From a virus (Duplodnaviria > Heunggongvirae > Uroviricota > Caudoviricetes), in IMG/VR virus record IMGVR_UViG_2541047860_000003, positions 1 through 34,596 of that record: a DNA stretch of 34,596 nucleotides; one strand, written 5' to 3'. Under the pieces are notes generated by a model. The model was not told the DNA's origin, ran no database searches, and saw only the letters and a program-made list of their open reading frames with translations. Positions within the stretch are counted from its first letter, which is position 1; every line of letters starts with the position of its first letter. The position numbers and the translations under genes were made by a program. This document shows positions 1,369-6,586 of this stretch, in pieces.

Positions 1369-1444
1369 GCCGATATAGCTCAGTTGGTAGAGCAGCGCAT
1401 TCGTAATGCGAAGGTCGTAGGTTCGACTCCTATTATCGGCACCA
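1369..1444 (+). tRNA. thrW: tRNA-Thr (anticodon CGU)
   Basis: 76-nt GCCGATATAGCTCAGTTGGTAGAGCAGCGCATTCGTAATGCG...GGTTCGACTCCTATTATCGGCACCA with D-loop, CGT anticodon loop, T-loop GGTTCGA and 3' CCA; a known prophage attachment locus next to proA. Confidence 0.9.
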
Positions 1445-5060: not shown

Positions 5061-5423
5061 TTAACGACCTGCTGCGCGGAGTTTTCCGTCAGGTTCACCG
5101 GCAAGAGTCAGCAACTGTCCCTGGTCTTCCTGCAGAATAGTCAGGCGACCACCGCGATTGACATACATCGGCGTTTCGGTGGTGTCTTCTTCGGAAATTT
5201 TCCCGCGGTTAGTCGGGCGAACATATGAGAGTTTGTGTTTGATTTTCACTCGGTTCTCATCAAACGGTTCGATTTCTAGGTTGAGCGAGACCTTACCTTT
5301 GGTTTTCGTGTTCATCACACCGGAAGCGACTTCACTGAGAACTGCGCCGATTTTGGTTTCAAATACGCCGCCGTCCAGCTCCCCGATAAATGCCTGCACA
5401 TCAGTACTGCGTTCGCTAGCCAT
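5061..5423 (-). CDS. YfdP-like small prophage protein
   Basis: Start assigned to internal ATG at 5423 preceded by SD GAGGAG with 7-nt spacer; the longer 226-aa reading extends into a GC-rich hairpin region and has no RBS. Confidence 0.5.
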   Translation of the reverse strand: MASERSTDVQAFIGELDGGVFETKIGAVLSEVASGVMNTKTKGKVSLNLEIEPFDENRVKIKHKLSYVRPTNRGKISEEDTTETPMYVNRGGRLTILQEDQGQLLTLAGEPDGKLRAAGR

Positions 5424-5891
5424 TTTGCTGCTCCTCATCATATCGACCCTGCAAGGTCGGTTAGTTTCTCCACAAAACAGAGAAGAACACCTGCGGTGAC
5501 TGCCGCCCGGATGGATTGGGTTATGAGCCCGTCGTCCGGTGATGCTCTTCTCTGTTTTGTAAAAAGGACGGTACCAGCCGGAAGCAAGGGTACAAGCTGG
5601 TACCGCCAAGACTACACACAGCATAAAGTTGTGGTGCCGGGTGCCTCCCGGTGCCTGGCGAAGGTTGCACACCAGGCGGGTGGGTATCCACAGAAGGTCG
5701 ACTGTCAGCCTCAACCTTAACCCGCGTGCGCTGAGCCGCATTCACCACAACGCTAAGGATTCTCTCTGGTTGAAAATACTTAGCTGTTATGTGCCTGCTT
5801 TTAGCCACATCAGGCGAGGTGGACCTAGTTATTCCCCAACAACAAGGATTCGGTTAATCTGGTTATCCCCAACAACGCAAAAGGAAAAGAA

Positions 5892-6326
5892 ATGTCCGGT
5901 AATATCTATACGCTGTACAAATCCCACTGTGAAAATGTTGGAAAGTATCGGGGCATTGAAATCAGTGGGGTAGTGTCATCAGTCGAAATAAGCAAAGTTG
6001 AATCAAGGGCAACATTACTTACTCTTTTGGACCTTGTCTTACATGAGCACCGGAAGAAATTCGGCACTCCCTATAATCAGTTGAATGGGAAAAAGGCTCT
6101 GGTTCACCTTATTCTGATGAAGCATCACTGGATGCCAAAACAGATTAATGAGATGAAATTTGATGAACTTCTTCTTTCAATTCAGGATGAACTCACACTT
6201 GATAAAATAAGCGTAACCGCCCAGAAATTTTTAGATTATCGAGACTGGAGATCACAAATTCATCACTTTGATGATTTTGACGAAAATGAATGGGATCCTA
6301 ATTTGTCTGCACAATATCTAAAGTAA
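5892..6326 (+). CDS. Hypothetical 144-aa protein (AT-rich cargo gene in immunity region)
   Basis: ATG at 5892 with AAGGA SD; visibly AT-richer than the flanking phage genes; convergent with and overlapping the 68-aa minus-strand gene; no recognisable motif. Confidence 0.5.
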   Translation: MSGNIYTLYKSHCENVGKYRGIEISGVVSSVEISKVESRATLLTLLDLVLHEHRKKFGTPYNQLNGKKALVHLILMKHHWMPKQINEMKFDELLLSIQDELTLDKISVTAQKFLDYRDWRSQIHHFDDFDENEWDPNLSAQYLK

Positions 6327-6504
6327 CATCCTGTGATAAAACCGTGATTTCCTGATCCAGTTTTTTTAAGGAGTCTATTGTTTCCTGTCGATAAGACAGC
6401 ACTTCACGAAGCTGGTTTATAGCTGCCAGCTTCTTTGTCATCCACTCATAAATTTCCTCATCTGTGTAGCCAGGCGCGACGATTTTGGGTTCTGTTTTGT
6501 GCAT
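6298..6504 (-). CDS. Hypothetical 68-aa protein, first gene downstream of predicted PL
   Basis: ATG at 6504 preceded by GAGGAG with 7-nt spacer; predicted coiled-coil-like, not Arg-rich, so not an obvious N homolog. Confidence 0.45.
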   Translation of the reverse strand: MHKTEPKIVAPGYTDEEIYEWMTKKLAAINQLREVLSYRQETIDSLKKLDQEITVLSQDVTLDIVQTN

Positions 6505-6561: not shown

Positions 6562-6564
6562 TAA

Positions 6565-6586
6565 GCGTCCTGTAGGGCGCTTTTTT
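6565..6586 (+). terminator. Plus-strand hairpin plus T6 run (putative terminator for the 144-aa gene)
   Basis: GCGTCCTGTAGGGCGC followed by TTTTTT; on the opposite strand the same hairpin immediately precedes an rrn-like boxA. Confidence 0.4.

Follow-up and report, generated by a model that had tools for sequence, protein, structure and literature searches.

Small RNAs (sRNAs) of the STnc100 kind (Rfam family RF02076) are carried by prophages across the Enterobacterales. In EDL933, 11 STnc100 copies are transcribed, one of which has been confirmed by northern blot (PMC5331693), and the family member EcOnc27/sRNA103 binds Hfq (PMC12711010). PasD was found by ligation and sequencing of interacting RNAs (RIL-seq), and its common ancestry with STnc100 has been proposed (bioRxiv 10.64898/2026.05.13.724894); a text search of that PasD/STnc100 preprint returned no mention of a pseudoknot or of promoters. 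A further prophage RNA, sRNA-17 of Escherichia coli K1 strain RS218, is a 193-nt transcript of an mEp460-type prophage that has been mapped by 5' and 3' rapid amplification of cDNA ends (RACE) and confirmed by northern blot (Front Microbiol 2020, PMC7719688). Its authors reported no Rfam homologue and made no link to STnc100 (PMC7719688). Here, we report on a 34,596-nt stretch of Caudoviricetes DNA (IMG/VR record IMGVR_UViG_2541047860_000003, positions 1 to 34,596), referred to in its entirety as the window, in which a GC-rich island upstream of the gene yfdP holds a covarying minus-strand RNA fold with homology to both STnc100 and sRNA-17, followed by a terminator-like hairpin, within an early-left operon. 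We consider it probable that this element is a minus-strand prophage sRNA module, the SfV-type allele of sRNA-17, that terminates or insulates transcription into yfdP.

Structure and strand of the island

GC content peaks at 0.56-0.585 across 5500-5800, against 0.35-0.45 in the flanks. An earlier note, made from the letters of this DNA alone, had described the island as GC-rich, dense in hairpins and without a convincing open reading frame (ORF), and had proposed that it is a structured noncoding RNA, a tL-type terminator cluster or a 5' leader of the neighboring 144-amino-acid (144-aa) gene. The composition and the lack of coding signal are borne out, with no Pfam match for any island ORF, and every feature that the note had listed was found where it had been placed. 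Two of them are larger than described. The inverted repeat given as 17 bp has arms of 25 nt (5472-5496 / 5536-5560; 84% complementary, 39 nt between the arms), and the stem given as a perfect 9 bp is a perfect 10 bp, CGGTACCAGC/GCTGGTACCG (5569-5578 / 5596-5605). The GC stems noted at 5637..5680 are two hairpins, 5637-5651 and 5653-5677, and the region is enclosed by a long-range 9-bp stem (5628-5636/5743-5751) that had been missed.

We folded both strands of a 236-nt stretch. The minus strand reached -100.9 kcal/mol (z = -4.85), with 0 of 200 shuffles as good, compared to -88.8 kcal/mol (z = -2.65) for the plus strand and z = -1.08 for the plus strand of the core alone, indicating that the structure is above chance and strand-specific. 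Many G-U pairs of the core, and of a hairpin in the yfdP leader, fit the minus strand only, as they become A-C mismatches on the plus strand. Therefore, the structured RNA of the earlier note is retained, with covariation (below) in its support, and is assigned to the minus strand, on which it runs in the direction of yfdP and the PL operon and opposite to the 144-aa gene. The parts of the predicted module are as follows, all on the minus strand.

5785..5822: upstream segment ACCUCGCCUGAUGUGGCUAAAAGCAGGCACAUAAC, conserved and marking the 5' limit of the mobile module; SfV/SfII homology begins at 5822 (position 79 of the search query)
5752..5784: 5' hairpin with arms GCUAAGGAUUCUC/GAAAAUACUUAGC (5752-5764 / 5772-5784), from an inverted-repeat scan and a minimum free energy fold
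5561..5752: predicted sRNA of ~192 nt (core, linker and terminator), from the STnc100 match and sRNA-17 homology
5628..5751: structured core, the first 124 nt, five-helix and pseudoknotted, from a covariance model and covariation
5751-5743 with 5636-5628: P0, the 9-bp closing helix of the core
5742-5740: AAU junction of the core
5739-5724: P1 of the core, GCGGC-UCAGC-GC(A)CGC
between P1 and P3: P2 of the core, short (3 bp family-wide, enclosing a variable hairpin)
5677-5653: P3 of the core
5651-5637: P4 of the core, CCGGG-AGGCA-CCCGG, abutting the 3' strand of P0
5718-5712 with 5667-5661: pseudoknot AAGGUUG / CAACCUU in the P3 loop, from matched versus cross-paired complementarity
5608..5623: single-stranded linker UGCUGUGUGUAGUCUU, 16 nt, a candidate seed, from cross-genus conservation
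5561..5607: intrinsic terminator with a 12-13-bp GC-rich stem and a 17-nt loop, then CUUUUU (U-tract 5565-5561), from an inverted-repeat scan and fold

The terminator hairpin folds on the minus strand at -23 kcal/mol (z = -4.6), the perfect 10-bp stem extending to ~12-13 bp. Directly before it, the linker is conserved in the E. coli, Salmonella ST64B, Cronobacter phiES15 and Klebsiella Kp4866-6 versions of the element, whereas the terminator stems of these versions are wholly different and retain the CCUUUUU tail. A conserved unpaired stretch just before the terminator is the usual seed position of an sRNA, and the usual layout of an Hfq-type base-pairing sRNA. By analogy with this layout, the linker at 5623-5608 is a seed candidate, which may pair with targets in trans in an Hfq-dependent manner. 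At the other end, the 5' hairpin lies directly upstream of the predicted mature 5' end and is absent from ST64B and mEp460. The 5785..5822 segment also precedes the element in phiES15 and Kp4866-6, and may hold a promoter or form part of a precursor.

Relationship to STnc100 and sRNA-17

In an Rfam covariance-model scan, one of the checks that the earlier note had put forward, STnc100 aligned full length (model positions 1-206) over 5781-5558 on the minus strand with a score of 43.4 bits, just under the curated gathering score of 47 (E = 5.3e-8 in the region scan and 2.3e-6 in the whole window). It is the sole such match in the window, and no second copy of the element was found there at E up to 1. 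Other Rfam families matched at chance level only (DicF, E = 0.15, on the terminator hairpin, and ftsZ-DE), and ARAGORN found nothing tRNA- or tmRNA-like in 5300-6000. STnc100 and PasD share with the window element the closing helix, UGGUGAAU, a P1 with a UNNGC pentaloop and bulge, a hairpin with a pseudoknot loop, the invariant CACCGGGAGGCACCCGGCACCA, a linker and an intrinsic terminator. Both of these motifs are exact in the window, at 5747-5740 and 5653-5632 (minus strand), and so is every helix of the STnc100 consensus secondary structure (closing helix, P1, penultimate hairpin, CCGGG-AGGCA-CCCGG and terminator) present.

We retrieved relatives with the invariant 19-mer CCGGGAGGCACCCGGCACC, which occurs in at least 120 contigs in each of two sets, viral and genome. 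The genome contigs span the Enterobacterales, bar a few high-GC unrelated taxa whose matches we take to be chance. Members share P0, the AAU junction, P1 with its UNNGC pentaloop and 1-nt bulge, P2 around a variable hairpin, P3, a 'CA' and P4. A covariance model built from 32 representatives recovered 137 instances in 100 loci; this model (R1) gives the window 84.5 bits, a score that is not independent evidence as the window sequence was in the seed. Among 102 distinct sequences, 97.3% of cells are paired; shuffles give 84.6% and slid controls 42-46%. Compensatory changes, on both sides of the pair, occur in 16 of the 25 pairs. The segment 3' of P1/P2 complements the P3 loop in nearly all members, through at least 15 different sequence pairs, with a mean matched complementarity of 6.67 nt against 4.43 nt for cross-paired controls. 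P4 appears invariant because of the route of retrieval by sequence; in Klebsiella phage Kp4866-6 it covaries (GGUGG-AGGCA-CCACC). An elaborate core of this kind suggests a conserved binding partner.

The experimental anchor for the locus is sRNA-17. Its ends, as given by the published primer table, are 5' CGTTGTGGTGAATGCGCAGGCTGATGCGCGAAA and 3' ...GGCTGGTACCGCTCTTTT (PMC7719688). Using mEp460 as a proxy for RS218, we placed the full-length (RACE-based) primers at 2355-2548 of mEp460, directly upstream of the yfdP homologue. The primer 5' end reads CGTTGTGGTGAATGCG..., and the 3' end falls at the same terminator as that of the window RNA. Both RNAs lie immediately upstream of yfdP, on the same strand and within the early-left operon. 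Their first 16 nt are identical (CGUUGUGGUGAAUGCG, which spans the 5' strand of P0 and the AAU junction and reaches into P1), the terminator and yfdP leader are common to mEp460-type phages at 95-97% identity over window positions 5609-5440, and predicted lengths are alike at ~192-194 nt. By homology, given the shared start and the shared terminator and leader, the window RNA would run from 5752 to ~5561 and be ~192 nt long. The interior ~110 nt are exchanged. sRNA-17 has P1 GCGCA-GGCUGA-UGCGC, other middle hairpins and another linker, with a P4-like hairpin CCGG-AGAUCAGCA-CCGG, and BLAST similarity to mEp460-type phages covers window positions 5609-5440 only, or 37% of the query, and so falls short of full length. 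It was to matches like this one that the authors of sRNA-17 gave the name 'degenerative sRNA-17' (PMC7719688). sRNA-17 matches nothing in Rfam even at E up to 10 and scores 26 bits with the covariance model built here. Given that sRNA-17 has no Rfam match and the window allele has a near-threshold one to STnc100, the window allele links the two. Reduced or diverged cores also occupy the same early-left position in mEp237 (~1618-1700) and mEp460 (2355-2548, sRNA-17 itself), where P0, the AAU junction and a P4-like hairpin with a AGAUCAGC loop are retained.

Operon context and competing explanations

On the minus strand, the window carries cI (7535-6843), a putative PL promoter with operator-like repeats (~6795-6745), yfdP, yfdQ and yfdR. 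As this is the strand of the element too, we place it within the early-left operon of a prophage of the SfV/ST64B kind, in the order PL, a 64-nt leader RNA, the ECs1072 cassette, the sRNA element and yfdP-yfdQ-yfdR, ~980 nt downstream of PL. Of the tL-type terminator cluster proposed previously, there remains a single minus-strand intrinsic terminator within an early-left operon, and no cluster. The features that flank the module are listed below.

5472..5560, minus strand: long hairpin of the yfdP 5' untranslated region (UTR), ~22 bp, the inverted repeat of the earlier note, with conserved apical GACGGGCUCAUAACCCAAUCCAUCCGG
5424..5471, minus strand: rest of the yfdP leader, with a small hairpin at 5461-5442 and the ribosome-binding site (RBS) GAGGAG at 5436-5431, from the fold and annotation
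5423-5421, minus strand: yfdP start codon, from annotation
5830-5843 and 5863-5876, plus strand: direct repeats ahead of the ECs1072-family gene and beyond the conserved RNA module, in a segment absent from SfV/SfII

The long hairpin begins right after the U-tract and is separate from the sRNA; the inverted repeat is thus a part of the yfdP 5' UTR. Together with the small hairpin (139 nt, 5562-5424), it folds at -56.3 kcal/mol (z = -5.0). In five sequences it shows three compensatory pairs and 96.9% pairing, against 41-58% in slid controls. It is common to mEp460, cdtI and Stx2c phages at 95-97% identity and absent from phiES15, and could possibly be a site of RNase III cleavage or of translational control.

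Family members occur in two genomic settings. Most are late-type units, free-standing and located between Q (the antiterminator gene) or stx and the holin/endolysin genes. A consensus sigma70 promoter (TTGACx, 17-18 nt, TAAATT or similar) puts their +1 on the first P0 base, and an intrinsic terminator follows. They exceed the Rfam gathering score, at 57-132 bits, and are often repeated in tandem, 2-5 units to an array with a ~250-nt period, some followed by a terminator facing the opposite strand. The early-left subtype, to which the window belongs, lies downstream of a cI-type repressor and heads the early-left genes (yfdP onward in E. coli, Shigella and Salmonella; kil-gam in Cronobacter phiES15), with a GCGGC-type P1 and P0 = GUUGUGGUG. 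The early-left homologues in SfV, ST64B, phiES15, Kp4866-6 and loci L006 and L014 all fall below the RF02076 gathering score.

Tandem STnc100-type arrays were seen at L031 1702-2340, L069 4349-5513 and 8357-8555, L012 2265-3380 and L022 365-996, often with adjoining tRNA genes. Each unit of the L031 array has a promoter-like -10 that would set +1 on P0, and a terminator of its own is present in most of them. HK639 carries four annotated terminators at ~160-380 nt spacing between Q and the lysis genes (44331-45164), with one model match at 44803-44930. In phage lambda, between tR' and gene S (44849-44945), GUUGUGCUGAAU...CAGCACAAC looks by eye like a degenerate relic of the same RNA, with P0 and the AAU junction and no P4, but the covariance model gives no match there.

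In the sRNA module that we favor, minus-strand transcripts would arise from PL, or from a weak promoter in 5822-5785, fold into a P0-closed five-helix junction locked by the pseudoknot, and stop at the terminator. Position 5752, the predicted 5' end, could be a transcription start or a processing site. The product would be a ~192-nt sRNA that exposes its linker and U-tail and could act in trans, and the same terminator would limit entry into yfdP-yfdQ-yfdR until read-through is permitted in some way. Read-through transcripts would carry the second conserved hairpin (5560-5472) in the yfdP leader. In a delta-sRNA-17::Cm mutant, yfdP is up ~95-fold and yfdR is up too (PMC7719688). This effect points to a link in cis to the downstream operon and fits a cis insulating role.

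Several observations weigh against this interpretation. A consensus scan found no sigma70-like promoter near the element on the minus strand, so that an independent transcript of the window allele is a prediction, and by a heuristic search promoter-like sites accompany 0 of 33 unique early-left-type instances, compared to 62 of 153 late-type instances. The early-left relatives L006 and L042 are without an obvious terminator, and the window itself scores below the STnc100 gathering threshold. No site complementary to the linker was found inside the prophage window with up to 3 mismatches. Expression and Hfq association belong to other copies of the family; for the window allele they are predictions. 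As for the sRNA-17 mutant, its inserted cassette may itself account for the de-repression of yfdP. Finally, the forward quantitative PCR primer for sRNA-17 maps ~45 nt downstream of PL, so at least some transcripts start upstream and the P0 5' end is possibly a processing site. This suggests that sRNA-17 is co-transcribed from PL and then processed. The promoter upstream of sRNA-17 is reported to be regulated by ArcA (PMC7719688); the published fragment for the sRNA-17 electrophoretic mobility shift assay covers the PL-proximal region to P0, where the window has a ~700-bp cassette inserted.

Downstream of the putative PL lies an unannotated 64-nt structured RNA (6656-6593, minus strand; AACGAACAGGCAGGACGCCCACGAAGUAGCCGCCUGGGGCAUAUGAAGUCCAGGAUGAUUCGUU). 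It is also found in SfV (~2405-2470) and in records L131-L136 (~1500-1570), and 49 phage records carry it at 80-100% identity. These come from nine genera: Escherichia, Shigella, Salmonella, Citrobacter, Pantoea, Yersinia, Klebsiella, Pectobacterium and, through T5-like phages, Providencia. Outside the window, in the phages examined, it begins 8-25 nt past a consensus promoter. Its outer stem and second hairpin covary: across eight sequences, 95.5% of cells are paired, with compensatory changes in 11 of 14 pairs. It matches no Rfam family, its sequence has no match in the literature, and in sequence it is unlike put RNA. It may serve phages without N as a leader of PL or in antitermination, and is possibly more novel than the sRNA element itself.

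The best-surviving alternative, which we judge unlikely, is that the element is purely cis-acting: a leader, attenuator or antitermination-related domain of the early-left operon, whose core modulates RNA polymerase or the terminator just downstream, possibly in partnership with the 64-nt PL-proximal RNA, the ~190-nt species being a mere by-product. The element has no promoter and is co-oriented with yfdP. In phages of E. coli, Shigella, Salmonella, Cronobacter, Klebsiella and Pantoea it occupies the interval from PL to the first early-left gene, with an intrinsic terminator directly after it. The window shows no evident N-like gene on the way from PL to yfdP. The 64-nt motif lies 400-1100 nt upstream on the same strand for 17 of ~32 early-left elements and 0 of ~191 late-type ones, and the strong rise of yfdP and yfdR upon disruption of sRNA-17 is also what a cis element would give. 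However, the late-type relatives are free-standing, with their own promoter and terminator, and their tandem arrays fit sRNA genes rather than cis elements. Discrete 160-210 nt RNAs accumulate from other copies of the family and bind Hfq. There is no sequence similarity to the put RNAs of HK022 or HK639, and a by-eye check for a conserved alternative antiterminator pairing between core and terminator turned up nothing convincing.

A combination of the two seems more doubtful still. In this scheme the core would be a factor- or polymerase-binding domain which, with the 64-nt leader, forms an RNA-only termination/antitermination switch gating yfdP through xis-int in SfV/ST64B-like phages, where no N gene is seen, and in the lysogen the terminated product would at the same time act in trans as an sRNA.

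The proposal of a plus-strand 5' leader or regulatory region for the 144-aa ECs1072-family gene is very improbable. The island does lie directly upstream of the gene at 5892, with two direct repeats just ahead of the RBS, and the promoter of the gene must fall somewhere in 5780-5890. However, the plus strand folds less well, both over the whole stretch and in the core, and loses the G-U pairs. The conserved module stops at ~5822, leaving only 70 nt, 5823 to 5891, that travel with the gene. Furthermore, the RNA is kept in SfV, ST64B, phiES15, Kp4866-6 and Pantoea AH07, with no 144-aa ECs1072-family gene annotated or matched adjoining the element. The direct repeat TTAT(T)CCCCAACAAC is present, but the pattern is not beyond chance, with 9 matches at up to 3 mismatches against 5.07 +/- 2.27 expected. 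On the minus strand the two repeats read GUUGUUGGGGAAU and GUUGUUGGGGAU; they are degenerate versions of GUUGUGGUGAAU, with which the sRNA starts, have 76-78% identity to 5740-5762, and may be scars of module exchange at the conserved start when the ECs1072 cassette was inserted.

Least probable of all is a degraded coding remnant without RNA function, a reading that can point to a RefSeq 'frameshifted hypothetical protein' pseudogene from the Prokaryotic Genome Annotation Pipeline at 5438-5748 on the minus strand (for example NZ_CP023366.1), to an open frame from 5741 into yfdP and to hypothetical proteins annotated over the region in several phage records, and against which stand the lack of a Pfam match for any of four ORFs, compensatory changes, G-U pairs and a covarying pseudoknot over more than 100 distinct sequences, helix sequences wholly exchanged with pairing preserved, and an experimentally mapped sRNA at the same locus. 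The pseudogene spans both the sRNA and the yfdP leader and most likely reflects mis-annotation, caused by spurious ORF calls over the RNA in other genomes.

With regard to the neighboring genes, the ECs1072 cassette is placed between the PL leader and the sRNA. The 144-aa gene (phrog_5286; 5892-6326, plus strand) and a 68-aa gene (phrog_1744; 6298-6504, minus strand) are convergent, and their ends overlap by ~29 bp. A plus-strand terminator lies at 6563-6582, beyond the 68-aa gene, and therefore the 144-aa mRNA would run antisense to the PL transcript as well as to all of the 68-aa gene. C4 antisense RNA and isrK score above their Rfam gathering thresholds in SfV (226-414) and ST64B (409-597), upstream of cI and cro and on the opposite strand; an Rfam scan of the window matched neither. 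Near the left end of the window is a tRNA gene (1369-1441, plus strand; 71.8 bits), tRNA-Thr(CGU) by reading of the anticodon loop, which is presumably the prophage attachment site.

Prevalence and comparison with described RNAs

At least 80% of the 501-nt query is present in 1,324 of 5,426 complete E. coli genomes, about a quarter, and 74 phage records have a match to it. The element is missing from the CPS-53 prophage of E. coli K-12, though CPS-53 carries yfdP, and K-12 data sets therefore cannot help. Its score just under the Rfam threshold is the reason why the element is annotated as a pseudogene or as nothing; recognizing it replaces a spurious pseudogene call with an sRNA gene. Given the sub-threshold score, the context outside the late region and the lack of full-length similarity to sRNA-17, we file it as a sub-threshold addition to a known kind of prophage sRNA, that of STnc100/PasD and sRNA-17. 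It is common and is not a new class.

The put RNAs offer a functional analogy only. Like the window element, HK022 putL and putR and HK639 putL are structured, lie in early operons of lambdoid phages without N, and are followed by terminators. However, they consist of two stem-loops of ~70 nt located directly after PL or PR, unlike an element ~980 nt past PL, and relatives of the window element terminate at their own terminators, unlike put. We read and folded HK022 putL/putR and the annotated HK639 putL and found no similarity in sequence or structure. In direct comparison the element has neither the put consensus CGAACGGCGCG...AAACCAUGCGUCGG...UCAGGAUGAACGGCAAU nor the two-stem-loop structure.

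STnc100 and PasD are nearer. They and the window element are alike prophage-borne and Enterobacterales-wide. They differ in P1, which is GCGGC... in the window and CCCCC... in STnc100, in the longer middle region of the window element, in the linker, and hence the candidate seed, and in setting, as STnc100 occupies the late region between Q (or stx) and the lysis genes and the window element the early-left operon after cI. The window allele bridges sRNA-17, published without an Rfam homologue, to STnc100/PasD, so that these RNAs can be read as one Enterobacterales-wide prophage superfamily with a covarying five-helix pseudoknotted core and two settings, promoter-bearing late units, often in arrays, and promoter-less early-left units.

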